Assembly: GCA_044892525.1 (NCBI GenBank)
Contig: CM097888.1
Span: 69,874,001 to 69,938,000 of the forward strand
Reading direction: 5' to 3'
DNA length: 64,000 nt
DNA from: Schmidtea polychroa
Lineage: Eukaryota
The position numbers and the translations under genes were made by a program. Of the stretch, positions 13,801 through 37,133 are shown one piece after another; positions within the stretch are counted from its first letter, which is position 1, and each line of letters starts with the position of its first letter. The notes beneath the pieces are model-generated. The model ran no database searches and was not told the DNA's origin. It saw only the letters and a list, made by a program, of their open reading frames with translations.

Positions 13801-14959
13801 CACAGATAGCCTCACTAAGGTTTGAACAATTCTTGACGCACAACTTACATTGATGATGGAGAAAATTTTCTTAGCAAAAACGACATTCAAAAACGATAGT
13901 GTGACACCCTCAATCACTGCGCGAATACATCAAAATTCTCCGATTCCCTTATTACATATCTTTGTTTTCAATCACTACATGACTATCAATTTTCTGCCAC
14001 CATTTACCTATAGATTTTAGTCGCACCTTCAGCAATTGGACCCGTGAAGAAGCCTTCACATTTCGGCCCAATCTAGCTGCGTGATTGAAATACCCTATGT
14101 CCACCGGTGGAGCTCCCGAAGGCACCTCACACCATGACATAGAGTATCTCAACGCCACGTTTCTCGCAAAATTGAATAGTCTCCAATAATAATTCATAAA
14201 AATTGATTCGTAAAAGATCAATAATTCTTAACGAGCAAATCATTTATTATTAAGCAAATTATTAATTTAAATAAAGCATTCTAAAATCAAACGAAAAGAA
14301 AAACCATTTTTCAAATTAAAAATATAATTAAACTATACGCATTACTTAAAAATTCAAAATAAGCAATCAAAAATCCTTATCGAATGATTGATACTAGTAT
14401 GGGCTGAGTCGAAAAGGGTACTATGTCAAATCAGTTAATGCTTGAATATCGTCTAGTTCTGTAAAAATCTCTTGAATCTTGGAATTGTCCTCGTGAGTTA
14501 TCGTGCGTTAGTTGCTGGAGTTCTGTTCTGTCGTAGAATAGATTTACCTATTGAGGTGGTTTGATTAACAGTAGTTGTTATGTTTTTAATGCCTGCTTAT
14601 ATATTAATTTTTTGTTTGCGCGGACCAATTAGAATTGAGTACCGCTTAATTTTATTAATTTAATTTATTTTCCTTGTTTTTGAGTTATTTCTTCTTATTT
14701 TCTTTATTAAAATTATGTTTTTATTTATTTTCCTTAATTTTCTTATTATTTACTATATTTTACGTTGTTTTCCGCCATTCTATTGTCCTATTTTAATTTT
14801 TTCTCATCTTTATATTTTTTGTTTTAATTCCTATTTTCTAATTATTGTTTTTCTTATGTTTTATTCTATTTTATTTGTCAATTTATTTGTTTTTATTTTT
14901 TATTTTATTTTAGTTAAGTTTGCCCTAATTTCCCAACTACCCTTCGACTCAGCCCAACA
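10850..14959 (-). repeat. Shared LTR (3' LTR of the complete copy and 5' LTR of the left copy), 4,110 bp
   Basis: Direct repeat of 37134-41243 with no differences seen on spot checks. Same TGTTG...CAACA termini. Confidence 0.9.
11417..12166 (-). CDS. LTR-encoded ORF (middle LTR copy)
   Basis: Identical to 37701-38450. Confidence 0.6.
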   Translation of the reverse strand: MLPNSKTVLRPCFSCSDKNSIIKELQAQIGKHKRKIDELEGTWFSPTQMKEAQKKLHRSEHCRDALISESRAQRSLIKEQSEALHKLYVQAAITRKIAKIPSNEAGNLFPAHHDISGGSSSPVGKPCHGCVETELSPKEPEIIFTGTSNVLPAIASTSAAPPTNPTASKPKRRQLSRAERKKKQRERVTAKQNPRSSDHPIKVINPPAAIDLASVISGRIISAAGVTWEENASEFFDLEDLLADSEWEK

Positions 14960-15192
14960 AATCACTCGGGGACCCATCAAAATTGCGTCCCGCAATTGCA
15001 TAGTTATCTTACTTCATGCATTCATAAAAAGGATATATCGAAACAATTATACTACAATAACAAAAACAATTTTATTCTAAGATATAGGTCAAAACAAGAC
15101 CAAGCAAGTATCACTTAAGGTGATAGTTTGTATATACAATAAAAGTTTCTACATATGATAACACCAATGTTTGAGTTAGAGTCTATGAACTG

Positions 15193-15852
15193 CTAACCAT
15201 TTGATGCTTCTGCTGACGGTTGTTGGTTGGTTTGGGTATTGGTGTTGAGATAGGTCTGATTGTTAGAATTCGGCTGGATTGGTTGGTTACTCGGGATTCG
15301 AGGTCGGAATGGGGTTGGGTTAAGATTTGTCAGTGGCACTTCTTGAGGATTTCTGTTCGAGATTACTCTTATTGATGTCGAGATTCTGCATCTATTTCTA
15401 ACTTCGTAGATCTTCATGAGTATTGGTAGACATAGGAGGAGGGTTTCTGCGATCACCACATATATGAGATAATGGGTGTCATTGATTTCGGGAGGTGTTT
15501 TTGGTTTTTCTACAAGATTTTCAAAATTCTCTTGTTGCATTTGTTGTTCCAACTGGTCGAATTGTTGAATTTGTTCGAGGATTTGTTTGTTTATCATTTT
15601 ACAAATGGGATTCTTTTTACACATTGTTTGGATGTTGTTGATGTGTGATCGGGTTGATTGAATGGTTTGGATGATATGGATTTTTACTGTCATAGGGTAT
15701 GTGCATTGGCCGGATTCTTGTTTAGGTTCTTGATTTTGATTTCGGTAATCTCGTACGATTTTCGGTTGGGCGTTTACTTGTTTGTTCTCCATCAGAATCA
15801 TCAATACCGTTATTGTTATCATCATCTCGCCTCGCATGATACTATTATACAT
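15193..15852 (-). CDS. Accessory ORF, predicted type I membrane protein
   Basis: Signal-like MMITITVLMILMENKQVNA, helical ectodomain with Cys residues, TM YLIYVVIAETLLLCLPILM, and a P/Q/N-rich tail. Confidence 0.72.
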   Translation of the reverse strand: MYNSIMRGEMMITITVLMILMENKQVNAQPKIVRDYRNQNQEPKQESGQCTYPMTVKIHIIQTIQSTRSHINNIQTMCKKNPICKMINKQILEQIQQFDQLEQQMQQENFENLVEKPKTPPEINDTHYLIYVVIAETLLLCLPILMKIYEVRNRCRISTSIRVISNRNPQEVPLTNLNPTPFRPRIPSNQPIQPNSNNQTYLNTNTQTNQQPSAEASNG

Positions 15853-15893
15853 TCATTATGGTTTATTTACAATTGGTTTTAGTGACCCCTAAT

Positions 15894-16658
15894 TTAATGA
15901 TTCTGGTTTGGGTTATTTTCGGCGATTCTCATCAGGGTGGATTCCGCTTTAATAACTCTGTGTCTTAACTCGGGCAGCATTTCCAACTGTCTGTTCTTTT
16001 CACGGGCCTCCCTTTTCATGTGCCTTATCTCCTTTTTCAGCCTTCTAATTTCTTCCCGTTTTTTGTCGAGGTTCCTTTTTAGTTCGATTTGTAGGAAATC
16101 TTGTTCGTTTTCCTGCGAAAGGTTTCGTTGTTGTTGTTGTTGTTGTTGTTTTCTCTCGATCTCTTGGTATTTGCGAATCCATTTCTTCATTTCCTCACTT
16201 TCTCGTTGTTTTTCCTCCAATTGTCGATTTAATTTATTTATAGTTATTTGGTGTTCTTTCGCCTTGGTTTTCCAATAATCCTGGATTACTTCTTCTGCCT
16301 TGAAGCTTGCCCTCTCTTGCCATAGTTCCTCTGCAATCTTTTCCCAGTTTCTTCCTCGTGTTCGTTGTTCTTGCAACCATTCATTCTTCTCTTCCGCTTC
16401 CCTCTTTATTTCTCCTAACACTTCGCACTCCTTCTTTAGTATTTTAATCATTTTTCGGTCTTCTATATATTTGTTTATTAGTCGCTCGTTTTCGTCCTTC
16501 TCTTCCCGTAACTTGGCCTTTAACGTTTGTGTTTCTGTTGTTTCTGCCTCAATCTCTCCCTCTTCTACGTCGCTCGTAATTTCTATTATTTCCTCGATTT
16601 TCATATCTGTAATATGTACAGTTAATGGTGCGCTATAGTGCGACTTATACATATACAT
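15894..16658 (-). CDS. Accessory ORF, coiled-coil protein with polyQ (likely start at ATG 16604)
   Basis: 254-codon ORF rich in E/K/R with a QQQQQQQ tract. MKIEEII is preceded by TACAG|AT. Confidence 0.72.
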   Translation of the reverse strand: MYMYKSHYSAPLTVHITDMKIEEIIEITSDVEEGEIEAETTETQTLKAKLREEKDENERLINKYIEDRKMIKILKKECEVLGEIKREAEEKNEWLQEQRTRGRNWEKIAEELWQERASFKAEEVIQDYWKTKAKEHQITINKLNRQLEEKQRESEEMKKWIRKYQEIERKQQQQQQQRNLSQENEQDFLQIELKRNLDKKREEIRRLKKEIRHMKREAREKNRQLEMLPELRHRVIKAESTLMRIAENNPNQNH

Positions 16659-16717
16659 TTATATAAAATTTTAATAGTTCGGGTTACAGTCCCTTGAATA
16701 CTTTTACAATACTTTAA

Positions 16718-16740
16718 TTTTTTTTTTTTTTTTTTTTTTT
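16718..16740 (-). other. Internal poly(A) tract (A23) downstream of an AATAAA
   Basis: T23 on the + strand. AATAAA (minus strand) at 16777-16782, just after the stop of the 351-aa ORF. Confidence 0.75.
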
Positions 16741-16787
16741 GTTTGGGATATACGTCCCGATTTTTGTCTTTATCTTTTTATTCACCC

Positions 16788-17843
16788 TTATACGAAGGTT
16801 TCCTCCTGTCCCACATAACCTTCGTCACTATCGACCGCTGGATGCAACTGTATCGCAATAGGGTCATAGGGTAGGTAATATTGGGGGATTTGAGCTCTCA
16901 ATTCATTAACTTCATCTCTTAGAGCTCGAGTGATATTCAGCTCTTCGTCGAGCAGATAAGTGAGATACCTTGTCTCTTCGTCTTTCGCCTCTACTTGTCT
17001 ATCTAAGGCCTTGATTTTCTCGTCGCCCTTCCATTTTTCAATTTCTATTTCCAAGTTTTTGATATTTTCGGTATACATTTTCCTCTCGTTTTCTAATTTT
17101 CTGTTTTTTCCCGCTAGGACCATGTTTCTTTGTTCTAACGATCCTTGTAGTCCATTAAGGTCTCTTTTCATCTCTTCGACCTGATTTACTAATTCCACAA
17201 CCCGTCCTGCTTGCTGGGTTATCATCTCTTCCATTGCAGCATTCTCGTGCTCTCTTATGTCGCATTTTATTGCCAAATGTCGTTCAAACTCCATAGCCTT
17301 CATCTGCCATGTTTGGCTTCGGGCGGCGACCTTTTTCAACCGTTTCAGTTCTTCCTTTATTATTAAATTTTCCTCCCATTTACCCTGTTCGCTCTCATAT
17401 CCGAGTCTCATGGGCAATTCTTTCATCTCTTTTTTCATTTCATTGCTTTGTCTTTTCCATTTTCTCGCTTCTGCCACTAAGTGCATCATTTTCCTTCCTT
17501 CTATTTGCTTTTCCGCTTCGCGCTTGGTGTTCTCATCGGTAAGTCTCTTTCTCGCTTCCTGCACTAGCTGCTTTAAGTAGTGGCTGTGCGCTTCTTGGCG
17601 GGTATTTTCTAGTGACGCCCATTTTGATGCTCTTTTGCATGCTTCTGCTTCCGCTCTTAAGTTGTGTATTAACCATTGGTATTGACTATTCTCATCCTCT
17701 CTAGCTTCTTCGATGTGATTTCGGGTGAGATTAGTTAGTTGGAACATTACTTTGTTCCATTTTTTGTTATGTTCTCGGGGAATTTGTGTCTTGTTGACAT
17801 TGGTTGGGACTATCGCAGTTTCGGTTAGTTTCTCTTGTGTCAT
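16788..17843 (-). CDS. Accessory ORF, 351-aa coiled-coil protein (unknown)
   Basis: Long uninterrupted ORF rich in E/K/R/L with heptad character and element-like A-rich codon bias. Confidence 0.75.
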   Translation of the reverse strand: MTQEKLTETAIVPTNVNKTQIPREHNKKWNKVMFQLTNLTRNHIEEAREDENSQYQWLIHNLRAEAEACKRASKWASLENTRQEAHSHYLKQLVQEARKRLTDENTKREAEKQIEGRKMMHLVAEARKWKRQSNEMKKEMKELPMRLGYESEQGKWEENLIIKEELKRLKKVAARSQTWQMKAMEFERHLAIKCDIREHENAAMEEMITQQAGRVVELVNQVEEMKRDLNGLQGSLEQRNMVLAGKNRKLENERKMYTENIKNLEIEIEKWKGDEKIKALDRQVEAKDEETRYLTYLLDEELNITRALRDEVNELRAQIPQYYLPYDPIAIQLHPAVDSDEGYVGQEETFV

Positions 17844-18037
17844 CTCTAAATCATAGACATCGATTAAGCTTTTTATTATGAAAAAGGAATTTATTCATTA
17901 TTTGCTGTTTCTTTGGAAATTTTCGCATCATTTTTGGGTTTACGTATTTAGGGTTTTTCATACTATTATTATATAATATTTTATTGGTTATATACACCGA
18001 TATATACAGATTATTATATACAACATTATTCGATCGT

Positions 18038-19426
18038 TTACTCCGTTCTGCCCTTCTCCTCTTTCCTTACGGTCATCTTGATATACACCGTGCCATTTCT
18101 TGCCATATCTTCTACTTTTTGTTGTAGGATGAACGTAGGTGCTCCTGTTGCTGATCCTTCTTCTTCCGTAGGTCTCTGGTAACACATTTGGTTTCCAGTT
18201 GTCTTGAAGCTTTGTTCGTGGATGTTTCGGTCATTCATTAGTGCAATATCGATTTTCGCCTGGAACGGCCACTCTATTATTTCGTCGTATTCTCCTTTAC
18301 ATAACAGAAAGAAAATCGAAAAGTGTGTGTCTAATCCGGTTCCGTCCCCGTTGGGATATATCTTCATTTTCATTTTGTACCCATTTTTCCAAGAATGGAA
18401 TGCAGGACTTGTTATTCTTGTCTCTTCTCCGGTTTTTGCTTTTCGTATTCTTTCCTTTACTCCCGTAATCTTCCATATGTAGGGTGCTGTTGGGGTTATC
18501 TCATTTAGATTTATTTCCCGTATTTTCTGATGTAGCTCCTTGGCCTGATTATTACTGATTTCTATTCGGTTTATTTGCATCTTTATGTTTGCTCGGGCTT
18601 CTTCGAACGCTTCCCTTTCTTCTAGTAGTTCTTTGACTAACACTTTCAACGATGCTATCTCTATCTCCATTTGTTTTACTTTCTCCTCGCTTTCTTGTAA
18701 CGCAGTCGACCACATTTCTGCGTGGGTTGAAGCATTTTCTACTAAATGATGTGGTAACTCCCCTCGGTGTAGTAGTTTCTGACAACCCCATTTGCCTAGT
18801 ACGCATGTCATTCTTTTCTTTTCACATTCCCTTAGATGCTGTGCCACCTTCATTATTTCCCCTTGGTTACATCCGTTTGGGCATTCCCCACTGAACTCTG
18901 CACATACTCTCTCCTCTTGGACATTGTGATGTTTGAGGGTGAGATTTTTCCACGTATCTATTTCTCCACAGTGTTCACATCTTTCTAATCTCTCCTCACA
19001 CTGCCTTTGATGCTCTTTTTCTTCGCTTGCTCGAATGGTTTTATGGCACCTTTCACACTGGCCAATTCTGTACATACATTCTCCCATATGTTGTACTACC
19101 TTCCATATTACTCCTTTCCATTCGCATGGGGCATTTTTGCATCCCAGGTTGGTGTTTAACATGTCTTTCACTGCGGCTTTATCCTCGTTAGTGTCTTCTA
19201 AACTCGATATTAGTGTCTCTTTACACACCGGGCACCTCTGTGGTCTATTCTTTATTGCTTCACTGATACATTCTTTACATACTCTGCATCCACATTGGGT
19301 TTGGTGGGGTTCTTTTAGTAACTTTTCACAGATTCCGCACATAACATGTTTGTGTATTCTGATCGTTGTAGATTTTCGGACTTGCTCGACAATCTCTCTG
19401 AACTCTTCTCTTTGTCGTTTATCCAT
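18038..19426 (-). CDS. traf: TRAF-family protein (RING, TRAF zinc fingers, coiled coil, MATH/TRAF-C), intronless, element-borne
   Basis: RING CGICEKLLKEPHQTQCGCRVCKECI...CPVC. ZnFs CKNAPCEWKG..HMGEC. MATH YIWKI..SPAFHSWKNGYKMKMKIYPNGDGTGLDTHFSIFFLLCKGEYDEIIEWPF, which resembles TRAF2/3/5. Confidence 0.93.
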   Translation of the reverse strand: MDKRQREEFREIVEQVRKSTTIRIHKHVMCGICEKLLKEPHQTQCGCRVCKECISEAIKNRPQRCPVCKETLISSLEDTNEDKAAVKDMLNTNLGCKNAPCEWKGVIWKVVQHMGECMYRIGQCERCHKTIRASEEKEHQRQCEERLERCEHCGEIDTWKNLTLKHHNVQEERVCAEFSGECPNGCNQGEIMKVAQHLRECEKKRMTCVLGKWGCQKLLHRGELPHHLVENASTHAEMWSTALQESEEKVKQMEIEIASLKVLVKELLEEREAFEEARANIKMQINRIEISNNQAKELHQKIREINLNEITPTAPYIWKITGVKERIRKAKTGEETRITSPAFHSWKNGYKMKMKIYPNGDGTGLDTHFSIFFLLCKGEYDEIIEWPFQAKIDIALMNDRNIHEQSFKTTGNQMCYQRPTEEEGSATGAPTFILQQKVEDMARNGTVYIKMTVRKEEKGRTE

Positions 19427-19511
19427 TCTATAATTATATGTACATATAGTTCTTATCGATACAGGTTCGATATTTTATTTACAGTTATTTACATTTTAAG
19501 CTAGGTTTGGT

Positions 19512-20164: not shown

Positions 20165-23100
20165 TTATCTTTGATTATTTTTATTGTCGCCCCCCGTTAT
20201 GATTAGGAAGGCCCCTGTTATTATTATCCCACTGATCCACATCATCTGCTTCACGCTTATATTCTCTGGTTTCTCCTTGTTCGTTAATGTTGATATCGCT
20301 TCTATACCTTTCTCGTTTCCTCTTTTGCCATTTCCTTTCATCATTTCCCGTATTCTTGCTATTTCCTCGTTCATACCCTCCTTTGCCATCTTTTGTATTT
20401 TTTCCATCTCTTCCTCCGAAACATAGTTGTCCTGAGCTTCCTCGCCGGTTTTCTTGTGCTTTCCTCCTTCGTTCTTTTCGTCGTGGTTTTTTCTTTTCTT
20501 TCCTCTTTTCCCTGGGTATCGTCGGCATTCTCTTTTTGATTCATTCCTCCAGATACAAACCGTGTATTCTTTCGGCGGCTGCTGCTGCGTCACATATTGA
20601 TGGCATCTCTCACCTGGTCCTAATCTTGAAATACAGACTTTGTGCTCTCTTCTAGGTTGGAGCTGCGTTATTACTATTTCACCACCTTTTCCTAGGTGTA
20701 CCTCTTTTCCTTTAACGTTCGTTATTCTCTTCCCGTCTCGATTTCGGTATGCTTCTTGTATTCTTACTTCTGTTATTGGTTCTGTGTCCTCATTTATCAG
20801 TACTAGTTTCTGATACGCTCTAGACATGCATCTTCCTAGTATGCACCTTTCCTTTAAGTCCCATTCTTCCTTTAAATCCCACTGCTGCTCTTGTGCTTGC
20901 TTTTTCTTTTCTTGTTTTAGTTCATCCTCTTTGCTATCTTGATTCTCCGCTTCTTTGGTTTCTTTTATCGTTCTCGTCCCTCCATGAGCTGTTACTAACT
21001 CTATCATGGTAAGCATAATTATCATTAATATCATATTTGTCTCTATTTCTTTGTTAGTGAAAGGTAGGCATACCCTCTGTTTTCCATTATTCGGTTTTTC
21101 CTCCTCTTTGGTCTTGGTTCCCGGGCTGTTTCCCTCTCTTTTCGTATCCAAATCCTTGTTTTCCGGTTTATCCTCTTCCGGTTCTCTTTTCCCTTTATCC
21201 TCTTTTCGGCCTTTTCCGTCATTGTCATCGTGTTTATCTCCCCCGCTGTCGTTTAAAATGTCGTCCTCGACATTTATATCGTTCAATAATCTGCGATATG
21301 CTGTTAGCACTCTGTTTCTTGCTAATTTTGCTTCGAATTCAAACTCTTTTCTACCCGTTGCAGCATGTCTCTTTCTATTCCATTCTTTAACTAACTCTCT
21401 CAATTGCATACGACGATGTTTCCCAATTCGTTGTTGCTCGTTCTGATTTTGCGTGAATTTTAGGTCTTCTCTATTTAATACTATTAAAATAATTTTAGGC
21501 GTCCCCCCTTTAGTTAGGGTATTCTTTACCATCGCATTTTCTCCGTTTTCGTAGAATTCGTTTACATTTATCGCATATTTATTATTTTGTGGTACCTTCC
21601 ATGTTAATAATAATTTCATTGCTTCTAGATTTTTCCGTACCGTATTCCATTGAAATTGAGATGTGTTTTTGCACATATTCTCAACTTCTTCTTTTGTCGC
21701 ATTTTTGCAAATAAATCTGATCATTTCTAAGTTTGGCTGTATGGTTGCCCAGTCCAATGTGGAGTTCCCTTCGTTTGATTTTTCGTCTAGTCTCGATCCT
21801 GATTGATGTAAGATGTGGAGTGTTTTTGGGTGTATTTTCGTTATAGCTGCATACATCATGGCGGTTTCACCTTGTTCATTTTTCGTGTTGGTTTCCTCAC
21901 CCATCTCCCCAAGGATTCTCATGATCGTTATTGCTCTATTCTCTTTTGCAGCTAGTATTGCTTGTTGTAGAGGTGTTCTGGAATCCTTTGTTACCATCGT
22001 AAATGCTCGAGGCAAGAAGGTTTTGATTTTCCCGATATCTAAACCCGTGGTTTGATCTCTTGCGTATGTGTGTACGGCTTTTATTATTTTGGACAATATT
22101 ATTTCGTCTGGCAGCTCTAGCATTTCCTCAAAGAACACTTCTTTTGCTTTGCGTATTATTGCCTCTTGATCTATACTCATTGATTTGGTTTCGATGACGT
22201 TGTTTGTGACCGTTTGGTTCGTTGTTGACTTTGATTCCCTTGATTTCTCATACCTTATTTTCGTTTTCTTTCCGTTTGGATTATTGATTCGTTCCTCTGC
22301 TGTAAGTATTTGGATAATATCCAGGTAATTCTCGCGGATGTTATTCATTGTGTCCATCATATATAACACACTTACCGTTTCCCAATATTTATTTCGTACT
22401 TGGTTAGTAAATTGGAATATTGATTTTTCGAATGTGTCGATTCGCTTTTTTGCTAACTGTTCATCTTTATGATTTGTGAATTTTATCCCTCGTTCTAGTA
22501 ATTGATTCGGAATTTCGAATAAATGATGTCCTTTCATAGCTTCTCTCATCAGCGTGTTCTCTCCTCTCGTGAACGCTTCGTTTACGTTGATCATATAATC
22601 GTTTTGAATTGGATTTCTCCATGTAATTAATATTCCGGTAATTGTTGTCAGTTTCTCTTTGATCGCTGTTAATAATCCATCATACATGTTTCCGACTTCT
22701 CGATTGTCCTCATATGATAGTAGTTCCATCAACGACGTGAACGCCTCGGTACTTTTCCCTTCGATAGCATGATGTAGAGCGTTTTTCCGCTCGTGGTCTT
22801 GTGTAGTTATTTTCGATCCAGTATCGAGTAATGCGGTTATAATGTCTTTTGTTTTGCCTCTGTTTGCGGCTATCATTAATGGTGTGTAACCTTGGTTGTT
22901 TGTTTGTTCTGTTGATCGCTTGCAGTCGTGAAATGCTTCTATTGTTTCTAGTATTTGCTCGTTGTTACCTACTTTCATGAGTTTGTGTAATGGTGTGTCT
23001 CCGTAATGATCTGTTATTGTAAATAATATTGGCCATTGGCTTTTGACTACTCGCAATAATGGGTGTGTCCTTTCTCTATTTGCATAGTTCTCGATCATCG

Positions 23101-26100
23101 TCAATAATCCTCCTAATATTTCGAAATCTAATCGATCTTTTGCCCATCCAGGTATTTTAATTTTTACCTCTTTTACAATCTTTTCCGCTTCTGATGGTTG
23201 GATACCCAATCGTCCGGTGATCGGTTCTGCGAGTTGTTGCATCATGTTCATTCTGTAGGTTTGCGAACGTGTGGTTAATGTACGGCCCTCTGGTTGACTA
23301 GTGGCTGTTTTTGGAATTGATTTGCATCGTGCTACGTTTACGTATATTGGCCTGGTAAATGGGTTATTTACCAATTTCACTCTTACATTGGTTTCGCCTA
23401 CGAATAAGATCTCATATGGTCCTTTTCCGTTGCGTTGTAACTTTTTTGTGGTTCCTGGAATTAATTCCGGGGTTTCTATCATTACCCAATCACCTGTTTG
23501 AAACGTATGTTGCTTCACGTTTTTCTTTCGATCGTGTAAATCTTTATAACTTTCCTGGTAGAACTTGATATTTAATCCCGCAGTTTCCCAAATCTCCTGC
23601 ATTCTTTCCTTGAATTTCGTAACATAATCGTCGATCTCCATATACTGCGATATCGGTGGTTGGTATTCCAGGTCCATTGGCATATTACATTCTCTTCCGT
23701 ACATTAATTTGAATGGGCTCATTTTCGTTGATGCGTGAATCGACATTCTGTACGCCATAAGACATAGGTTTATATATTCGTCCCAATCTCGTTGGTGACG
23801 GTCAACGTAGTTTGATAACATTTGTATAAGTGTTCCATTAAATCTTTCCGTCATCCCATTGGTTTGGGGGTGGTATGGAGATGTTCTTAGTTTTGCTATT
23901 TTGAAGTAATTTGTTACTTCGCTCATTATCTCACTCATAAAATTAGTTCCCTGATCGGTTAATATCTGTTTTGGTGTTCCATATCGGCAACATATCTCTT
24001 CTACCAGAATTTTTGCGATTGTTTTAGCTTTTTGGTCTGGCATCGCGAATGCTTCTGGAAATTTCGTAAGAAAGTCGGTAATCACTAAAATATAAACGTT
24101 TCCTCTATCCGATTCCGGTAATGGACCAACTACGTCCATTGATATCATCGTCATCGGCTCTATTGGTACGGGCATTGGCGTTAAAGGCGCTTTCCATTTT
24201 GATCCAGTATTTTTCCTGGTCGCACAAGTTAGGCAATTTTTTACCCATTCGGTTACATCTTCAGTTAACGTAGGCCAAAAATATTTCTGTTTCATTCTTG
24301 CTAACGTCTTTTTCGATGACATATGTCCTCCCAATCTCCCATCGTGATATTGCGTTAGTAACTCTTTTCGTCGGTTTTCCGGTATACACATTAATCGTTT
24401 TTCCCCATCCATTATCAGCAACCAATCTTTCTCTATAATATATCGGTGTCGGTGTTTATCCATATGTTCTTTTAATTTTTGGTCTTTCGCATATACATCT
24501 GTCTTTCCGGTTTTTACATAATCGATAATTTGTTTTAATTCCGCGTCCTCTTGTTGGTTCTTTCGCAATTGACAGAAATCTAGGTCTTCTGCTACCATTA
24601 GGCATATGCGTTGCATTTCTGAATCCACCAAATCTGGAAAAATAAATCTTGACATACAATCGGCGTTGGCATTTGCTCTTCCCGCTTTGAATTTTATAAA
24701 TGGGGAGTATTCTTGCAATTGCATGGCCCATCTCATCAGTCTACTGGACGCTTCTTTATGTTGCCCTAACCACACTAATGGTTGATGATCTGTGGTTATA
24801 CATATCTCATGTCCCCATAGTAAATATCGGAAGTGTTTGATAGCTTGTATTATAGCCAATGCTTCTCGTTCTGTTACCGAATAGTTCTTTTCGTGCTTTT
24901 TGAATGTTCGACTGTAATACCCGATTACTCTCTCTTTTCCTTCATCGTCTAATTGTCCCAGAATCGCGCCTGCCGCGTACCCGCTTGCATCCGTTGCCAA
25001 TAGAAATGGCTTCTTAAAATCTGGGTGTACTAGGATAGGTGCTTCGATTAGTTTATCTCTCAGCGTTTCAAACGCCTCTTGTTGTTCCTTCCCCCAAATG
25101 AACGAAATGTCCTTCTTTACTAATTCCTGGATTGGTTTTGCAATTTCTGCATAATTTTTTATAAATTTGCGATAGTATCCGCATAATCCTAGAAATTCCT
25201 GAACTTGGGTGACAGTTTTCGGTGCTGGACATGTTTTTATTTTCTCAATGTTTCTTGGATCTGGCTCCTTTCCTTTAGCTGACACTATGTGTCCTAAAAA
25301 CGTGACTTTTTCCTTTGCCCAATCGCATTTTGATGGTTTGAGTTTGAGTTTCCACTGTCTTAATCTAATAAATACGTTTCGGATATCTTCCAGATGTTGT
25401 TCAAATGTCGCTGAATAGATTAGTAAATCATCAATATATACCATACATTGTTTGATTCCATGAGTGACAAAGTTCATACACCGTTGAAATGATGCTGGTG
25501 CGTTGGTCAGTCCGAATAGCATTTTCCTGAATTGATATAGATCTCGTCCCAACGTGAAAGCTGTTTTCTCTTTGTCCTCATCTTTGACTTTAATCTGCCA
25601 GTATCCACTTTTTAGATCTAAAGAAGTAAAATATGCTGCCCCTTGCAACATCAATAACATCTCATTGATGTCCGGCAATGGATAGGTATCTCTCTTGGTT
25701 ACTGCGTTTAACTTCCGATAATCGATACAGAATCGTTGGGTGCCATCTTTCTTTTTTACCATGACCACTGGGAATTGCCAGGGTGAGCAACTTGGTTCGA
25801 TTACTTTTGCGTCTAGCATCTTTTGTACTTCTGCTTCGGCTATTTCTTTTTGCATTTCTGCTAGCTTGTATGGTCTTAATGCAATTGGAGTTTCATCTAT
25901 GAGGGGTATTGCATGTAGGGTAACATCGCATGTACCCAAATCTAAATCTGAGATGGCGAATATATCTTTATATTCTACCAACAATCGGTGCAATTTTTTC
26001 TTTTCATCATTCGTCAACAACATACTATCTATTGTCCATAATTCATCATCTTTGATCATCTCGTTGGTCACTTTCGGTAATTCTATGTCCATCATTGGGG

Positions 26101-28870
26101 TCAATCTTCCCAATTTTTCGTTCTCATAAATGATTTTGTCTTCCTCTTCGAAATTCGTGATGTTGAGCGGTATCACTCCTTCTTGGTTTATTGTGATTAT
26201 TTCCCTTTCGAGTGGTAACTCTCGTCGCTTTTCAAATGACTTGCTTGGTTCAAAGATAACTTCTCCTTCCATACCCGTATCCACTTTTATCTGACAAATC
26301 ATCTGCGATTTTGCTGGTACTATTATTTTTTCTGGACATCTGATTACTGCATTCATTTTGCATATTCTACCGGTTTTGTCTTTTAAACACATGGTGGTTA
26401 AGTCAATTACGACTTCTTTTAACAATTCTGGCATCAAATCCGTTCCGATTATGCATGGTACGCTAAGTTTTGGTATTACTGCCAAATACGTTTCAATTTC
26501 GTTGTCCTGGTATCTCAAAGTAGTCCACCATCTTCCGACCACGTCCACTGTTTCTTTACTACATGCTATGATGTGAATTGTTGTTGATTCGATATCTTTC
26601 CAGTGTTTACTGGGGATTTGATTAATCGCTATCGCTGATACATTAGCTCCGGTGTCTATCATAGCATTGGTTTCTTTACCATTGATTTGAATCATAACTG
26701 TTACTGCTGGACCTCCAGGTAGACTCATTGCTGCTATTGTTCTTACGTCATCTGCTTGATCTACACTTTTGGTACGTCGTGTTGGCATATAATGCATACC
26801 GGGTTGACTCGGTAATTGCGGATACATATTTTGTGTCATGGTCAAAGCTGCTTGTGGTCCCACGATATCCGGTGGTATGTAGCTTCCATTGGCGATCCAG
26901 GTATTTGTCTTTTCCTTTTCCCAATATGGTGCCGTTTCCATTGGTTTTTCGTTTGGGTTTCTGTTTGGATATAGACATTTATCGTTCCCGTTATCGTCGT
27001 CGTCACTATCGCTGTTAGATGATTGGCTTCTAAATCGGTTCAAGAATTTTGGCTTATTCTTTTTCAATTGTCGTCTTGTTGCTTCATCGTACATTACTTT
27101 CCGGAATCGTCTGCCTACTTCTTCGTCGGTTCCTTTAATCTTTGTTAATATTTTAATCAATTGCTTTATCCGATGAATGTCTTTTGAGTGACCATGTAAT
27201 ACCATGGTTTTAGCTAAAAATGGTAGAAAGCCTACTATCATTTTCCAATTTACTTTCTTTTCTCGCTTGTATATATCAAAACACGCTAACATTTGTGTTA
27301 GTTTTACTCTGACTATCTGAATTATGAGTATGATCCCTAATATCCCGGCCATCATTTGTCCAAAAACTAAGAATCTTCCCCACATTGCTTTCATCATGTT
27401 CGATGTGGCTTGTTGAAAATGGTCTGGTGATAGTAGCAGCTCGTAATTCGGGCCTGATTGATAATTTGTTCCCCCCGTTATTGTAACCATATTTGACAAA
27501 ATGGATTCTCGTCTGGCTGGGAAGAGTACGTTAAGTCGTGCTGTTTCTAGATCTTCTGGGGAATACATACCACCGTTTGACACGTCTATAGGTTTGAAAT
27601 CCAGCTCTGTGGCGAGTTCTATTAATCCAAATTTCTTGGGCTCCTCGGATATGGTTTTTCCCGGTAACATCATCCATTTCCCATCGGGTCTTTCATACAA
27701 AGGTCCGTATGCATTAGAACAGTTAAAGAGATTTGGGTAGAAACCCACTGGATTCATAATTCTAGTGACTGGTAGGACGAATCGATTTTGTCCTTTATAA
27801 CGGATTTCTAATTCATTTGCACATCTCTTTTCGGGTAGTATGGATTTTTCTGGCATTCGTGCATACGTCTTGGTACACTGGTATGTGTACATCACTTCTC
27901 CTACCATTCTACCAAAATGTCCATCTGGTAATGGGAGTGATGGCATTGTGTTATCTGGGTGTGTTATCGCAATAGCTAACTTGGTTTTCAGTATTTCTTT
28001 ATTCAATGAACAATCGTTTTGTATCAGATCGTAATATACTTTTTGCAAGGTCGTTTGTCCACGGTGAAATAGAAAATCCATTTTATTATTTGCATATAAG
28101 TATAGTTTTACGTCCTCCGTTGCTATCTTTCCCACTGCTCTATCGATTATTTGTCTCGACATATAGATACCAGCGTAATTGGTTTTATATACTATACTGT
28201 CACATTTGGTGGTTTCTTTCTCTTTGATAAATCTCATACCTAGATCTGGATCGTCTGTGATTAATGCTGTTGGTGTCTTCTGCGTTGAAAGTCTCTTTTC
28301 TCTGGGAGATGGTGGCATTGGTTTTCCATTTCGCATTCTCACCCTGTCGTTTCCATCCTCGTCGTTCTCGTTCTCATATATTTCTCCTTTTACTTCATTG
28401 AACAAAGCACTTTTTAACAGTTGGAGTCGGCATTTTTGGGTATTAGCTTCATAGATTATAGTTGATACTCCTGTCCTGCATACGTTTTCTGTAGCTCTAC
28501 ACGCTGGGTTGGTCTTCATTTGATAATTATTTGCGTCAAATTGCGCTTCGTATTCTTTTAATTCGACCGTGTAAGACTCGATCACTACTACTCCCGATAT
28601 TACCTCACCTCGGATCGTATACGTACCTCCGTTACATGACCCATCTGATGATTTTAGTTTTCCGGATACGTAAACGCTTTCGGTTTTAATCATTCCAGTT
28701 TGTCCGTGAATCGTCACTCCGTTATGCATTTTTAGCGCTCCGGTTCTAAATAGCTCTTTACAGTCCTCTCGTTGTATGGATACGATTTCTTTATCCAGAC
28801 CAGGTAGTATAAGAGTCGAATACGAATATTGTCCACAGTAATATGGAGTACCTTTTTTGATACCACGCAT
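20165..28870 (-). CDS. pol: Env-Pol polyprotein (2,901 aa ORF): chuvirus/gB-like glycoprotein + TM, aspartic protease, RT, RNase H, integrase, ankyrin repeats, C-terminal membrane module
   Basis: Env motifs YYCG, GSCNGG, GEVMYTYQC, RCANEL, FVLPVTRI and a TM at ~27305-27375. PR IDTGA (26648-26656). RT PYK/SPW/DYRKLN/LDLKSGYWQ/FGLTNAP/YIDD (25427-25438). RH TDAS..EREALA..TDH. IN HHCC, MDVVGP, TDQG, ERFN, GPY. ANK motifs GDTPLH, GYTPLMIAA, KNALHHA, GETAMMYAA. Confidence 0.93.
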   Translation of the reverse strand: MRGIKKGTPYYCGQYSYSTLILPGLDKEIVSIQREDCKELFRTGALKMHNGVTIHGQTGMIKTESVYVSGKLKSSDGSCNGGTYTIRGEVISGVVVIESYTVELKEYEAQFDANNYQMKTNPACRATENVCRTGVSTIIYEANTQKCRLQLLKSALFNEVKGEIYENENDEDGNDRVRMRNGKPMPPSPREKRLSTQKTPTALITDDPDLGMRFIKEKETTKCDSIVYKTNYAGIYMSRQIIDRAVGKIATEDVKLYLYANNKMDFLFHRGQTTLQKVYYDLIQNDCSLNKEILKTKLAIAITHPDNTMPSLPLPDGHFGRMVGEVMYTYQCTKTYARMPEKSILPEKRCANELEIRYKGQNRFVLPVTRIMNPVGFYPNLFNCSNAYGPLYERPDGKWMMLPGKTISEEPKKFGLIELATELDFKPIDVSNGGMYSPEDLETARLNVLFPARRESILSNMVTITGGTNYQSGPNYELLLSPDHFQQATSNMMKAMWGRFLVFGQMMAGILGIILIIQIVRVKLTQMLACFDIYKREKKVNWKMIVGFLPFLAKTMVLHGHSKDIHRIKQLIKILTKIKGTDEEVGRRFRKVMYDEATRRQLKKNKPKFLNRFRSQSSNSDSDDDDNGNDKCLYPNRNPNEKPMETAPYWEKEKTNTWIANGSYIPPDIVGPQAALTMTQNMYPQLPSQPGMHYMPTRRTKSVDQADDVRTIAAMSLPGGPAVTVMIQINGKETNAMIDTGANVSAIAINQIPSKHWKDIESTTIHIIACSKETVDVVGRWWTTLRYQDNEIETYLAVIPKLSVPCIIGTDLMPELLKEVVIDLTTMCLKDKTGRICKMNAVIRCPEKIIVPAKSQMICQIKVDTGMEGEVIFEPSKSFEKRRELPLEREIITINQEGVIPLNITNFEEEDKIIYENEKLGRLTPMMDIELPKVTNEMIKDDELWTIDSMLLTNDEKKKLHRLLVEYKDIFAISDLDLGTCDVTLHAIPLIDETPIALRPYKLAEMQKEIAEAEVQKMLDAKVIEPSCSPWQFPVVMVKKKDGTQRFCIDYRKLNAVTKRDTYPLPDINEMLLMLQGAAYFTSLDLKSGYWQIKVKDEDKEKTAFTLGRDLYQFRKMLFGLTNAPASFQRCMNFVTHGIKQCMVYIDDLLIYSATFEQHLEDIRNVFIRLRQWKLKLKPSKCDWAKEKVTFLGHIVSAKGKEPDPRNIEKIKTCPAPKTVTQVQEFLGLCGYYRKFIKNYAEIAKPIQELVKKDISFIWGKEQQEAFETLRDKLIEAPILVHPDFKKPFLLATDASGYAAGAILGQLDDEGKERVIGYYSRTFKKHEKNYSVTEREALAIIQAIKHFRYLLWGHEICITTDHQPLVWLGQHKEASSRLMRWAMQLQEYSPFIKFKAGRANANADCMSRFIFPDLVDSEMQRICLMVAEDLDFCQLRKNQQEDAELKQIIDYVKTGKTDVYAKDQKLKEHMDKHRHRYIIEKDWLLIMDGEKRLMCIPENRRKELLTQYHDGRLGGHMSSKKTLARMKQKYFWPTLTEDVTEWVKNCLTCATRKNTGSKWKAPLTPMPVPIEPMTMISMDVVGPLPESDRGNVYILVITDFLTKFPEAFAMPDQKAKTIAKILVEEICCRYGTPKQILTDQGTNFMSEIMSEVTNYFKIAKLRTSPYHPQTNGMTERFNGTLIQMLSNYVDRHQRDWDEYINLCLMAYRMSIHASTKMSPFKLMYGRECNMPMDLEYQPPISQYMEIDDYVTKFKERMQEIWETAGLNIKFYQESYKDLHDRKKNVKQHTFQTGDWVMIETPELIPGTTKKLQRNGKGPYEILFVGETNVRVKLVNNPFTRPIYVNVARCKSIPKTATSQPEGRTLTTRSQTYRMNMMQQLAEPITGRLGIQPSEAEKIVKEVKIKIPGWAKDRLDFEILGGLLTMIENYANRERTHPLLRVVKSQWPILFTITDHYGDTPLHKLMKVGNNEQILETIEAFHDCKRSTEQTNNQGYTPLMIAANRGKTKDIITALLDTGSKITTQDHERKNALHHAIEGKSTEAFTSLMELLSYEDNREVGNMYDGLLTAIKEKLTTITGILITWRNPIQNDYMINVNEAFTRGENTLMREAMKGHHLFEIPNQLLERGIKFTNHKDEQLAKKRIDTFEKSIFQFTNQVRNKYWETVSVLYMMDTMNNIRENYLDIIQILTAEERINNPNGKKTKIRYEKSRESKSTTNQTVTNNVIETKSMSIDQEAIIRKAKEVFFEEMLELPDEIILSKIIKAVHTYARDQTTGLDIGKIKTFLPRAFTMVTKDSRTPLQQAILAAKENRAITIMRILGEMGEETNTKNEQGETAMMYAAITKIHPKTLHILHQSGSRLDEKSNEGNSTLDWATIQPNLEMIRFICKNATKEEVENMCKNTSQFQWNTVRKNLEAMKLLLTWKVPQNNKYAINVNEFYENGENAMVKNTLTKGGTPKIILIVLNREDLKFTQNQNEQQRIGKHRRMQLRELVKEWNRKRHAATGRKEFEFEAKLARNRVLTAYRRLLNDINVEDDILNDSGGDKHDDNDGKGRKEDKGKREPEEDKPENKDLDTKREGNSPGTKTKEEEKPNNGKQRVCLPFTNKEIETNMILMIIMLTMIELVTAHGGTRTIKETKEAENQDSKEDELKQEKKKQAQEQQWDLKEEWDLKERCILGRCMSRAYQKLVLINEDTEPITEVRIQEAYRNRDGKRITNVKGKEVHLGKGGEIVITQLQPRREHKVCISRLGPGERCHQYVTQQQPPKEYTVCIWRNESKRECRRYPGKRGKKRKNHDEKNEGGKHKKTGEEAQDNYVSEEEMEKIQKMAKEGMNEEIARIREMMKGNGKRGNEKGIEAISTLTNKEKPENISVKQMMWISGIIITGAFLIITGGDNKNNQR

Positions 28871-29175
28871 TCCCTTGCTTGCGTTCTGATGAAATCTGAT
28901 TCTTGATATACATGGTAAGTAACTTTTGTTCTTACTATGTCTAATTTGTTGGGTGATGCTTGTCTACATTCTTCTATGTCTCTCAATGAGTATTTATCTC
29001 TCATTATCATATTATCACAATCGTAGATGGTAAAACCCGTTGCTCCACTGGTGCACAACATCCATATCATCATAGTCATCATTAACGAATTTATTGATGC
29101 TTTTCGGCTTGTTGGGTCTTTCATGGGTAGTTCCCATTCTAGTTCATTTAGCAACTTCTTCAATCTAACTTGCAT
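28732..29175 (-). CDS. env: N-terminus of the envelope glycoprotein (signal peptide plus start of ectodomain); joins the large ORF by a -1 shift near 28852-28858
   Basis: Hydrophobic leader SLMMTMMIWMLCTSGATG, then FTIYDC...IEEC...HVYQ...ECVVSKK. This continues as (G)TPYYCGQYS in the -1 frame, as expected for chuvirus-type G N-termini. Confidence 0.78.
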   Translation of the reverse strand: MQVRLKKLLNELEWELPMKDPTSRKASINSLMMTMMIWMLCTSGATGFTIYDCDNMIMRDKYSLRDIEECRQASPNKLDIVRTKVTYHVYQESDFIRTQARECVVSKKVLHITVDNIRIRLLYYLVWIKKSYPYNERTVKSYLEPER

Positions 29176-32100
29176 CGACCTTTCTTGCTCATTTTTTCGT
29201 GGTGCTTGTATAAGTCTTTTCCACGAATAATATGTGGTTCAATAGTATTCTCTATGATTGAAACGGTCATTTCCACATGATTTGCAAACTGTTTATTTGG
29301 TATTTTCCTCGCAGCTAGTCCCATCAAATTAAACATCAAATACGTGATTACCACTAGGTGATGTTCGTCATCATTTGCATTCGTCGTGAGCTGTTCAATC
29401 ACTCTCTTTGTTTCATCCCAGTCCGTTTTGGTGGTTTTCGTTTTCTCTTTGATTAACTTTGGAATTATCCCCGAAACGATGTGCCATAATTGTCTAGCTT
29501 CCGTACTGGCTACTTTCCGTTGCCACAAACGTCTAAGTTGTGGGTTTGTTATTATTAACATATCTTTTAACAATTCTCGTATCCATTTTTCTCCTCTTTC
29601 GATCGTTGGTTGGGCTTCCTTTAGATCCCATACTATTTTATCCAATTTTTCTAATCGAACTTGCCCTTGTTCTTGCTTTAATTGTTCTTTGGTTTTAAAC
29701 TCAGACTTTTCTCCTTGTTTCTTAGGTCTTCCTTTTGCCCGTTTTTCCATCATCGTTCCGGCTTCTCTGGTATTTTCGTAATTCGGATTTCTTTCGTTAT
29801 CCGTCCTGGGTAATGAGCTATCGTTATTTCTTAGCCACTCATTCCATTCGTCTATTATTTTATCGGTTTGACCTTCTGGTGTTACTTTCGTTGGTTCTCT
29901 TTGCTTCTGGAATTGTTCATCCGTTTCGGTTTCCGTAGTATTGTCGATGATTTCTTTGATGTTCAGTTTCGTTGGTTGTTGATAACTCGTTGATGGCTGG
30001 TTATTAGTCCACATTTCGGCTCCTGTCGGCCATCTCACTAATAGCGGTGATCTTTCTCCTGGTTCATCGTCACTATCTTCCAGGATTATCTCTTCAACTT
30101 CTTCAGTTTCATTAGATTTACTTGGTGCTTTGTTCGGACTTGGAGTACTCAAACTGCCTTTTGTTGGTTTAGTAATTTTACTTTTCCTTTTTAACGGTTT
30201 CCCCAACGTTTCTGCCATTGTTAATACATTTGTCTCTTCCAATCTCATGGGTGTTATTCCGACGTCTGCATTATCGTCTAGTGATTTTCCGAACAGTTGC
30301 AGATGGAATGGAGTTTCATATGCTAATTTCTTTTTTAATTCTCTAATCTTTGTTGTTGGATGCACCTCTAGTTCCTCGATGCTCTTGTCCGGATACTTGA
30401 TTCGGATGTGATACCTCTCCTGAGTGTCTTGTGCCCATTCCTGATTTCTCCATTTTCGAATAATTTGTTCTAGCTGTTCTGGATACCATTCATTATATTG
30501 CCGGTATTCCTCTATTGCCTTTGCCATTCCTCTCAGATTGTGGATGTTTTCTGATGTTTTTAAGATGATGTTAGCCAACGCTACTACTTGGCGTTTTTGA
30601 TTTTTCGCTCCCATTGCTAAGATATCGCCTAATTGTTTATATCTTTCTTTCTCTTCTCGTTCTCTTGCTTCTATTGCTTCCTCGCCGTCCATATCAGCAT
30701 ATTCTCGTTCCTTTTTCCTCATTGCATGAATATGTCTCGCTTCATTTTCGCTTTCTGATGTGACATCCGTCTCGCTTTCGTCATCCGATGTCTGTTCCCT
30801 TTCTTCTTCTTCATATTCTGGAGGTTCCTCTTCTTCTTCCTCCGATTCACTTTCTGTCTCACCAATGTCTGTTTCTACGAAGATTCCTTTCCGGATTTCC
30901 CATTCCTTAGTTTCTGCATTCCACATTCTTTCCCATGGGGTTCGTCTGCAGGATCTGGTACTTAGTTTCGTGATTTTTCCTTGTAGTTCCTTTTCTTTTA
31001 ACCATTGTTGGTGGATTTTAATTATTTCCGTAGATTTTTGATATAACGTTTTCATCCGGTCTCGTATTTCTTTTTGATAGGTTACATCTCTTGTTCGAAA
31101 TTCATCCATTGGTACTATCCTGATTATCTGATGATTGTCCCACATACCCATTTCGCTTAACGAGGTGTCGTCCTCCGCTCGTAATATTATTTTATCGTAC
31201 ATCATGACTACATCATCCACCATACCATCACTACTTTCGCTACGTAACTTTTCCGTTATCTCTTGGTTTATTTTTGATACCAAGTCATCTACTGTACTCT
31301 GATTGCTCATTTTTATTCGTCGTTTTTCTTCGTTCGGTAACCATATGGTTATTTCCAACCTCTGTGGCTGGGTTTCTTTTAACCTTCCATATTTGTGGAT
31401 TAAATTTATGGTTCTCCAATCACTCATCCGGAGCATTTCTGTATCTCGCAATCGGCTCATTAGTTCGTACATGGCTGGGGCTCGTCTGGTGATGAGTAAA
31501 TCCCAGTTGTCTTCCACTTGTGCTTGAATTTGTTTGATCAGCTTATCCAGGTTTCGTCTCAGAGTACATTGTTTTATTTGTTCTAATTTCAATTTGATGT
31601 TAAAATCATATTCTGCCTTGGCATCTTTAGCCCAATCGTACAGGTTGGCTGGTTGTTTTTCTTTATGCAACTTCAGTATTTGCGTTTCTCCTGGCCATAT
31701 TAGTGCATCTACTAAGTGCATATCTGGTTTGATCTGTTCTCCTTGGTATTGATACAGATATTCTTTCTTTCTCGAACTTCCCAAATGTTCTCGTATCCAA
31801 TCGAAAAGTTCGTCGGTGACTGTATTTTTTATCCACATTCTTTCAAGTCCTCTGCTCGTTCCGATTTTTATGACATACCGCGTGGTATCTGCCTGCTTCA
31901 TTTTTTCCATATACTTTTTTATAATTGATTTTTCCTCGTTTGGTATTAAATCTTTCTCGTTTCTTTCCAATTTCATCACTTTTTGCACGAATCGCCTGAA
32001 TGGTATTACGTCGATGAACTCTTGGTTCCTCACTACTACTGGGAGTATTTCAGCTACTTGTTTTATCGCTTCCTCCCTCTCTTTTCTCAACTTTATTTCG

Positions 32101-33875: not shown

Positions 33876-35239
33876 GATTGGTGTTCTAGATTCGTCTGTT
33901 TCTTTTAAATTGTCTAACGATGTGACTAAACTTTGGGCTGATAATTCCTCGGTTGACGTTGCTAAACTATTAGTGATGTCGGACAGACTTTCTCTGCTTC
34001 GAGATCGACTAGGGGTGTATCCGAGATTTTCTTGATCAAATATAGGTACTTGATTGGTTCTTCTTGATCCTTGTGATATTCCTCTTTGCTGTTTAATAGA
34101 TCGTCCTCTTTTGAGTTGTTGTAATTCGTCTCCTGAAAATAATACGTCTCCTGGCTTACTTGAAGATCTAAGATTGGGTTTATCCGTGATTCCTTTCTTA
34201 CGCTTCTTGGTAATTAGCGGCTATTGAATTGGACGAGTTCGGTTCTGATTGTGTTTCCTTCGATAAATATTCTGTATGAATCTGCTACTGTGATTCTGAG
34301 GAGATTCACTAGTCCTTGACAGATGGCTGCTAATATTATGAGGTTGAATATATCGATGATTCGTTCGAAGTTGGAGATGTCGCTATCTGTATCTTCTTCC
34401 GTTCTGGAGTCTTCCGGTTGCTGTGTCTCTCGGTGCGGGTTCTGAATGGATTTATTCTTGGTCGATTGTCGATTTCTTCGAATTCCTTTTGTGCAGGTTC
34501 TGGATTGTCTTGGTTGACTGGATTGGTTTGATATCTAAAATTAAAAAATGATCTCGTGTTGCATTTGCTTACACGACTTCATCATTCTTTCAACAACGTT
34601 CGAACACAGACACCTTTTAGGTTCTGTTTATGCTTCCCCTATTGTTTATGCAATTACTTCCGCGGGTTATAATTTCCCATCAGCCCGAATTTTTCGTCGA
34701 TTTTAAATTATCTATATGGGGTAGTAACAATTATCTATAAAGTCGTAATAATTATCTATTCGTTATCAATTATAGTAAAAATAGGTCGTTGTCGGTCTCT
34801 GCTTATTACTCCCCTTCGTTTTCCTATTCCTTTTGCGCTGTTGTCGCTATTTTACTTTTCATATTTACTATTATTACACTCGGTTCGACTCTGGGACCAA
34901 TAAAATGCATTTTCCCGGTTTAACCAAAAAAAATATTCCGTAGAGTTTCTCTACTTCACTGGGATCCCTTTAATTAGTTGGTTACTTTCCTCTTTACTCA
35001 TTATCATCGTTTCGCCTATTCTTTATTTTCCATTATCTCTTTAATTCGGTTCCTTCTTCCCTTTCCTTTTTCATTATAATCTTATTATCTTTTCCACGAG
35101 CTCGTTTATTTCCTCTCTAAACTCAAATTTTCGTAATTACATTCAATTTGTTTCTAGCTGGCTTTAATATTCCCTTTCTCTATTAATTCAGATATTAGCT
35201 CATTGTAGCTTAACTGCTATCTCTCGCTTTTCTAGGCCT

Positions 35240-36810: not shown

Positions 36811-37108
36811 GTCTATAAAAAAAATGTTTCAGTAATATATGACTTCGTTTCGTCAAACATTCTCTTTTCTAACTCGTTATCATTATTTTACTTTTATCTT
36901 ATTTCTCTATCATTAAATTTGCTTTATTTATATTTTTAATTTTATTATTTTCTATTCGTGATTATAATAAGATTCGATAAGCATTAGTCAATTTGCTCTC
37001 GCTAACCCATTGAAATCACTAACCCCGGTGAGTTCACTCTATTCGACAGAAATTCACTCAATAACATCCCTATCCAGTTTACACTAATCAATGGAAATTT
37101 CAATCTAG

Positions 37109-37126: not shown

Positions 37127-37133
37127 AAAATTA

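Follow-up and report, generated by a model that had tools for sequence, protein, structure and literature searches.

Two related ankyrin-repeat modules follow the integrase of a giant env-bearing Gypsy-type retrotransposon in Schmidtea polychroa

The window analyzed here is a 64,000-nucleotide stretch of the genome of the planarian Schmidtea polychroa (GenBank assembly GCA_044892525.1, contig CM097888.1, positions 69,874,001 to 69,938,000 of the forward strand), the minus strand of which carries a long terminal repeat (LTR) retrotransposon of the Gypsy type. Judged against the published description, the element fits the env-bearing Burro/GYPSM1 type. Its principal open reading frame (ORF) encodes an envelope protein (env), a protease (PR), reverse transcriptase (RT), RNase H (RH), and integrase (IN), which are followed by two ankyrin-repeat (ANK) modules and a predicted membrane protein. 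The two modules appear to descend from an old duplication, are conserved among genomic copies, and are separated from IN by a predicted protease cleavage site; we regard them, with some confidence, as accessory cargo. The features of this ORF are as follows, in window positions and in amino acids (aa) of the translated product.

20165..28963, minus strand: env-PR-RT-RH-IN-ANK-ANK-membrane ORF, 2,932 aa, from Pfam matches
23261..24385, minus strand: integrase (H2C2 finger, core, GPY motif, C-terminal domain), Pfam Integrase_H2C2 and rve
23234..23257, minus strand: predicted protease cleavage site between IN and the ankyrin block, aa 1903-1910, ranked 1 of 2,921 when held out
23027..23125, minus strand: module 1 N-terminal helix cap, aa 1947-1979, aligned with module 2 and three relatives; helices in the AlphaFold2 (AF2) model
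22715..23026, minus strand: module 1 ankyrin repeats 1-3, aa 1980-2083, Pfam Ank_2 E 9e-17
22457..22702, minus strand: module 1 degenerate repeats 4 and 5, aa 2088-2169, in register with repeats of relatives P0370, P0382, and P0395; AF2 helix pairs
22112..22411, minus strand: inter-module spacer, partly low-complexity, with no strong protease-site-like motif
22007..22105, minus strand: module 2 N-terminal helix cap, aa 2287-2319, from alignment with module 1 and the relatives; weak alone
21695..22006, minus strand: module 2 ankyrin repeats 1-3, aa 2320-2423, Pfam Ank_2 E 4.7e-9
21434..21667, minus strand: module 2 degenerate repeats 4 and 5, aa 2433-2510, from alignment and a relatives-only profile
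20984..21034, minus strand: hydrophobic stretch after the ankyrins, resembling an internal signal peptide or anchor, aa 2644-2660, from a hydropathy scan
20195..20245, minus strand: C-terminal hydrophobic stretch of a predicted small membrane protein, from a hydropathy scan

Layout and predicted fold of the ankyrin modules

The domains that follow the integrase are ~225 aa each, and each comprises an N-terminal helix cap and five ankyrin repeats. Pfam Ank_2 matches the whole ORF at E 5e-17, and the module values listed above come from scanning each module alone. On a position-specific scoring matrix (PSSM) for the repeat, repeats 1-3 of module 1 score 17.9, 36.1, and 12.4 against a null maximum of -11.9. 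The canonical repeats of both modules agree with the two ANK clusters described in an original prediction, made by a model from the letters of this DNA, and the peptides quoted there were all located (22571-22594, 21554-21574, 22457-22486, and 21434-21463). That prediction also placed a cap after each cluster. The two caps do form a paralogous pair, but they are no separate domain, each corresponding instead to a degenerate repeat 5 that comes after a degenerate repeat 4. We read each module as a helix cap plus five repeats because the relatives keep recognizable repeats at the positions of the window's tails. The generic PSSM is insufficient alone at repeat 5, where module 1 scores -11.7, about the null maximum, and module 2 scores -23.7. 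A profile of repeats 4-5 made from the relatives only placed module 2 first (20.9 bits vs 15.3), and its counterpart for the cap region ranked module 1 first of 363 and module 2 72nd. With the N-terminal helix cap included in the duplicated unit, module 1 starts at ~23125, beyond the range of 21410..23050 originally proposed.

An AF2 model of module 1, built from a five-row alignment, reached a pLDDT of 83.9 and a pTM of 0.80 with five helix pairs, those of repeats 4 and 5 being H150-158/H162-169 and H193-200/H206-214; the fold of module 2 is read from its sequence alignment. A single-sequence AlphaFold run on the 566-aa ankyrin block gave a pLDDT of 33. The top structural matches of the module 1 model in Foldseek and VIA-align are all ankyrin proteins. 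The modules are assigned an ankyrin fold, that is, stacked helix-turn-helix repeats with hairpins, and the five-repeat form is itself a prediction. The doubt initially raised over whether an ankyrin fold exists here is answered by Pfam Ank_2, AF2, Foldseek, and VIA-align, which predict it with confidence.

Duplication and conservation of the modules

The modules are colinear (aa 1978-2169 vs 2318-2510), with 50 of 188 positions identical and an alignment score of 146, compared with a maximum of 73 in 1,000 shuffles. Ankyrin stacks are alike in general, so 361 unrelated ankyrin proteins, retrieved by protein searches with the ankyrin block, served as a control. Against this set the tails score 101 with each other (maxima 59 and 60), and the canonical repeats score 67 between modules, where the generic ankyrin medians are 92 and 83. 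A five-row tree unites modules 1 and 2 as sisters with support of 97/95 and a long-branch warning. Twenty-two alignment columns are exclusive to the two modules, the most for any pair involving either, and their pairwise score (165) lies beside those of module 1 with P0382 (166) and P0395 (167). Since the tails are specifically alike, the modules are sisters, and 22 columns are exclusive to them, duplication within the element's lineage is the best reading of the sequences; because no similarity remains at the DNA level (best blastn E 0.064), the event would be old. The internal duplication claimed in the original prediction is upheld by the alignment, the tails, and the tree.

The modules are also maintained. 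A search of the genome for module 2 returned 1,030 candidates, among which 150 matches were scored; 148 of these have no stop within the match, and 59 sit within a 4,732-aa open frame. In 28 of the 30 closest DNA copies, the frame is open from the GPY motif (window 23411-23428, aa 1846-1851) to the last repeat, which settles an early concern that the region might be absent or frameshifted in other copies. Ratios of nonsynonymous to synonymous substitution (dN/dS) were computed pairwise over 28 of the 30 closest loci, the two tandem partners having been dropped. For repeats 1-3 and repeats 4-5, the values are 0.14 and 0.11 in module 1 and 0.10 and 0.15 in module 2; the spacer (aa 2171-2315) gives 0.49 and IN 0.01. 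Pairwise values of this kind are not independent, and the copies had been selected for being nearest to the window; even so, the departure from neutrality is large. The pattern indicates that both modules are under purifying selection and, on this criterion, functional.

Position of the domain among relatives

Querying proteins directly with the ankyrin block yielded generic ankyrin proteins and nothing closer, and a search of the ESM Atlas likewise gave only generic ankyrin clusters. True relatives surfaced through an RT-RH-IN protein search, from which the best 120 of 452 proteins were taken. Among these, P0370, P0382, and P0395 carry the same ankyrin domain in one copy each. A profile built from these three only scores the window modules at 83.5 and 68.6 bits, compared with a maximum of 49.9 among the 361 other ankyrin proteins. 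The domain changes place: in P0370 (aa 2126-2313) it follows env (1487-1863) and precedes PR (2436-2532), and in P0382 and P0395 it is found downstream of IN, at distances of 510 and 366 aa, with extra protease-like domains in between. Two or three extra aspartic-protease-like domains, often directly after the integrase, also occur in P0371, P0374, P0375, P0378, P0381, P0387, and P0390.

A 41-row RT tree places the element in a clade of 23 (support 95/90), with the four chromodomain-bearing rows outside it. Four rows of the clade, in three separate lineages, bear the domain and 19 do not; because several rows are partial, absence is uncertain for some of them. Past the GPY/F motif, a readable continuation was obtained for 15 of 21 rows (six missed the search pattern): nine have a protease-like domain, five a signal-like stretch, and one, the window element, ankyrins. 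A second abundant Gypsy family of the same genome with env in frame (G000:C2:156707001-156717000, L065, and related loci) has frames of up to ~3,334 aa and 52-54% identity in RT and IN; five of its stretches covering RT and IN gave no module match, a sixth stretch being without RT. A search of viral_contigs for a related locus gave 349 pattern matches, none of which was confirmed. By comparison of these proteins, the slot after IN in the Burro-type clade is a variable cargo position and not a targeting slot.

Predicted cleavage and membrane topology

A short hydrophobic motif resembling a protease site occurs eight times in gag, compared with a shuffled maximum of four, and four times in the env-Pol ORF: before PR, after PR, between RH and IN, and between IN and the ankyrin block. 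The IN/ANK site owes its held-out first rank to a matrix built from nine other boundary-like sites, and it also came first when the matrix was built from six gag sites only. It is unchanged in 28 of 28 open copies. From the ankyrins to the hydrophobic stretch at aa 2644-2660, no comparable motif was found; the best score there is 5.2, vs 11.9 for the IN/ANK site. In polyproteins of this kind, an integrase must be released from such a membrane anchor to act on DNA. Because IN needs freeing and the only good candidate cut precedes the ankyrins, the ankyrins would stay on the anchor side.

Near-C-terminal hydrophobic stretches were seen in 16 of the 17 relatives scanned. The polyproteins, both in the window (20168-21034) and in those 16 relatives, end in a predicted second membrane protein composed of a signal-like stretch, an ectodomain, and a transmembrane (TM) segment. 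In P0392 and P0394, this C-terminal protein has immunoglobulin (Ig) domains. One possible role is that of an attachment protein distinct from env.

Function of the ankyrin pair

Besides the ORF described above, the element carries the following.

29160..34220, minus strand: gag ORF (Retrotrans_gag, CCHC knuckles, long accessory tail)
18038..19474, minus strand: TRAF-like accessory ORF with RING and MATH domains, Pfam TRAF-mep_MATH E 1.9e-25 and zf-C3HC4_2
36325..36828, minus strand: RING accessory ORF just inside the 5' LTR, Pfam zf-C3HC4_3 E 8.5e-12
15193..17894, minus strand: three more accessory ORFs, two coiled-coil-like and one with hydrophobic stretches, no Pfam match above cut-off

Taking these lines together, we consider it fairly probable that the ankyrin pair is accessory cargo, cut from IN by the protease, facing the cytoplasm, tethered to the membrane, and binding a host signaling protein. 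The element's own protease would cut at aa ~1906, parting the integrase from the ankyrin block, and the ankyrins would remain joined to the signal-like stretch at aa 2644-2660, on its cytoplasmic side. The released, tethered protein would then bind its host partner, which may belong to immune or cell-death pathways because TRAF and RING genes are carried along with it. Given that both copies are conserved although they differ at ~75% of positions, the duplication probably made binding broader or stronger. The "released effector" of the original prediction thus finds indirect favor in the mobility of the domain among relatives and in the cleavage-like motif after IN, with the cut itself deduced from that motif.

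Several points weigh against this account. The cleavage motif expression was chosen by eye from the element's own sites, and the four matches in the env-Pol ORF are no more than shuffling can produce (mean 1.7, maximum 6). The runner-up to the IN/ANK site, at 11.4 vs 11.9, falls inside env, and the gag-only matrix puts three known Pol boundaries at ranks 7, 42, and 24. The signal-anchor call is one of hydropathy only, and the relatives are predicted assembly proteins, several of them partial.

A narrower form of the cargo reading, also named in the original prediction and one that we hold to be doubtful, makes the released domain an IkB-like decoy that keeps a host Rel/NF-kB-type factor outside the nucleus. 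IkB-family ankyrin domains have five to six repeats, a size that the five repeats per module fit, and the TRAF cargo would suit the same pathway. The top BFVD match of module 1 is the replicase of planarian secretory cell nidovirus, PSCNV (E 2.5e-7, 20% identity; next match 5.8e-6), and Bcl-3 is the best natural chain of <300 aa in a PDB profile search (70.8 bits). In structural comparison, however, Bcl-3 ranks only 36th in Foldseek, and IkBbeta (Z 16.2) and IkBalpha (15.9) tie in VIA-align with FEM1, RNase L, DARPins, and gankyrin (15.8-16.5); the TM-score of the PSCNV match, 0.55, is below those of several giant-virus ankyrins (up to 0.66). In the host, the sole Rel-homology gene found (G000:C4:30761489-30766000; L071, L072, and L106) has a signature that we take to be NFAT5-type. 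Ankyrin exons scattered 10-25 kb downstream of this gene reach at most 7.5 bits with the module profile. An exact-motif pattern for host NF-kB had no matches, and PF00554 had none even in controls, so that absence does not follow from either result. Among 235 host Ank_2 matches, the 30 best loci have no special kinship with the modules (best 43.4 bits, partial). Pfam gave no F-box/PRANC or SOCS-box match in the element.

The released domain might instead serve the element's own cycle, as a membrane-side scaffold, a matrix-like particle adaptor, or a protease regulator. Its continued attachment to the hydrophobic anchor, its place next to protease or protease-like domains in all three relatives, and its purifying selection are consistent with such a role. 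We nonetheless judge it improbable: because the domain is missing from 19 of the 23 clade rows, several of them partial and the second env-bearing family among them, it is not needed for the env-bearing architecture.

Another reading, put forward in the original prediction by analogy with the chromodomain, keeps the ankyrins on the integrase and has them tether integration to a chromatin feature. They do follow IN directly and in frame, ~100-130 aa past the GPY motif, animal chromodomain-bearing relatives in our set have linkers of up to ~130 aa, and ankyrin repeats can read histone marks, as in G9a/GLP. Yet P0370 has the domain before PR, P0382 and P0395 have other domains between it and IN, the top-ranked cleavage-like motif separates the ankyrins from IN with none comparable before the anchor, and the RT tree sets the element apart from the chromodomain-bearing rows. 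No chromodomain was matched by Pfam in the whole ORF, nor in aa 1835-1944 at E<=1. An insertion-site bias was likewise not seen at chromosome scale: 144 copies on four chromosomes show no departure from uniform (Kolmogorov-Smirnov p 0.16-0.96; of 150 positions, three were left out for lying on small contigs and three as tandem partners, and the length of C3 was assumed). Of 30 LTR starts, 17 have a host flank, and these flanks contain no common target repeat. Such tests are coarse, and fine chromatin targeting would escape them. With the domain mobile, absent from most of the clade, and following a cleavage-like motif, and with insertions free of gross clustering, a chromodomain-like tether is quite unlikely. 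Least probable of all is that the modules were captured separately, as the low mutual score of their canonical repeats, a pairwise score no higher than those of module 1 with P0382 and P0395, and a branch joining two long branches might suggest, or are non-functional passengers: the exclusive columns, the supported clade, and the tail-specific similarity argue against the former, and dN/dS far under 1 with nearly stop-free module 2 matches against the latter.

Element structure and surroundings

The accessory cargo reading concerns one part of a unit of 30,394 bp, with an internal region of 22,174 bp and LTRs of 4,110 bp.

37134..41243, minus strand: 5' LTR, 4,110 bp, TG..CA ends
10850..14959, minus strand: 3' LTR, which also belongs to a second tandem copy running off the left window edge

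The tandem pair has three LTRs with no differences over 4,110 bp, the middle one being common to both copies, and a 4-bp target duplication lies at the outer ends of the array. Other copies of the family stand about one unit apart (G000 C1:39.17-39.22 Mb, C158, C2:177.70-177.72 Mb, and C4:46.25-46.28 Mb), and some of these were shown to have an LTR in common. Tandem copies may reflect unequal recombination, circle integration, or an assembly artefact. Both copies in the window have a frameshift between gag and env and an early C-terminal stop, so that the 20165..28963 ORF is no longer in the gag frame near 28.7-29.2 kb and stops short near 20.2 kb. Upstream of PR, its env matches Pfam Monjiviricetes_fusion (PF24664) at E 6e-57. 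Pfam gave no BIR match in the RING ORF, nor any BIR, BCL2-like, SUMO-like, or dUTPase-like match in the ORFs scanned; the Burro review used profile-profile search for some of these.

No polypurine tract precedes the 3' LTR (14960-14990, minus strand), and an identical mixed sequence stands there at 13 of 13 internal junctions, L109-L113 among them, identified in 30 LTR starts. Plus-strand priming may be unusual for these two reasons. A candidate primer-binding site (37100-37133, minus strand), which we take to resemble a tRNA-Pro site, begins a few bases past the LTR end and does not adjoin it. Within the LTR is a 261-aa ORF with no Pfam match (11417-12202 and 37701-38486), and a fragment similar to it by eye (L103:6149-6445) lies near the host Rel-homology gene. 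The leader that separates the RING ORF from gag holds a 74-bp tandem repeat array (35092-35835 and 8808-9551). Host DNA flanking the element is AT-rich and includes a weak LIM_bind match just below cut-off at 54383-55060, likely a host exon, and a 387-aa ORF with no Pfam match at 61952-63115.

Comparison with known systems

In chromoviruses, a chromodomain is located at the IN C-terminus (PMC3605345). The window element is similar in that its frame runs on past the GPY/F motif into an additional protein-binding domain. It differs in lacking a chromodomain, in its separate RT clade, in having a ~600-aa ankyrin block followed by a membrane anchor, in the cleavage-like motif before the ankyrins, and in the changing position of the domain among relatives.

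Viral mimics of IkB include the polydnavirus vankyrins and poxvirus ANK proteins. Like them and the IkB family, the element presents short stand-alone ankyrin stacks carried by a virus-like entity; a difference is that its stacks form a tandem pair inside a polyprotein, and no IkB-specific structural or sequence signal was found in it. PSCNV, which provides the best viral fold match of module 1, is closer in organization, with ankyrin cargo in the giant single polyprotein of a planarian-associated virus-like element. The PSCNV ANK domain is closest to planarian RHD-ANK proteins, is a proposed IkB mimic, and is predicted to be released in one protein with a TM segment (PMC6211748). Three repeats are described there, as opposed to two sets of five in the window element, and identity is 20% in the structural alignment. 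A speculative extension, to which we give little credence, is that a mobile, protease-released five-repeat cassette of the Burro clade shares a common origin with the PSCNV ANK domain and that both are membrane-tethered IkB-like decoys. If true, this would be a retrotransposon-encoded blocker of innate immune transcription, swapped between unrelated flatworm virus-like elements and doubled in the window family.

The closest system is Burro1-4/GYPSM1, the giant Gypsy-like LTR elements of planarians, which exceed 30 kb in total, with internal regions of up to 25 kb, long LTRs, and Gag-Env-Pol frames of 4,873 and 5,140 aa (PMC6431247). They contain ankyrin repeats, MATH/TRAF, an in-frame env like a mononegavirus fusion protein, and BIR, BCL2-like, SUMO-like, and dUTPase-like motifs (PMC6431247). 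The window element resembles them in its length of >30 kb with LTRs, its single frame of 4,732 aa, an env of the mononegavirus fusion type in frame between gag and Pol, ankyrin repeats, MATH/TRAF cargo, and a RING accessory ORF; it differs in that its TRAF is a separate ORF downstream of Pol and that no BIR or BCL2 Pfam match was found. Ankyrin repeats in Burro-type elements are therefore already published, in a section (PMC6431247, section 7) whose text states neither how many ankyrin domains there are, nor where they lie, nor whether they are duplicated, and the feature itself is not new. Our literature searches, from which figures and supplements of the key Burro papers were out of reach, did not find the duplication, the five-repeat structure, the positional mobility, or the release site, and in the literature searched the ankyrin cargo has so far been listed and not dissected. 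Burro-type elements are abundant in planarian genomes. According to a second-hand account, the RING-BIR cargo of Burro1 is reported to protect stem cells from apoptosis (PMC13465017), and another source has BURRO1 silenced by SMEDWI-2 (PMC8532177). For the ankyrin cargo of the window element, the domain boundaries, predicted release site, and predicted topology now make a partner search possible with a defined fragment.

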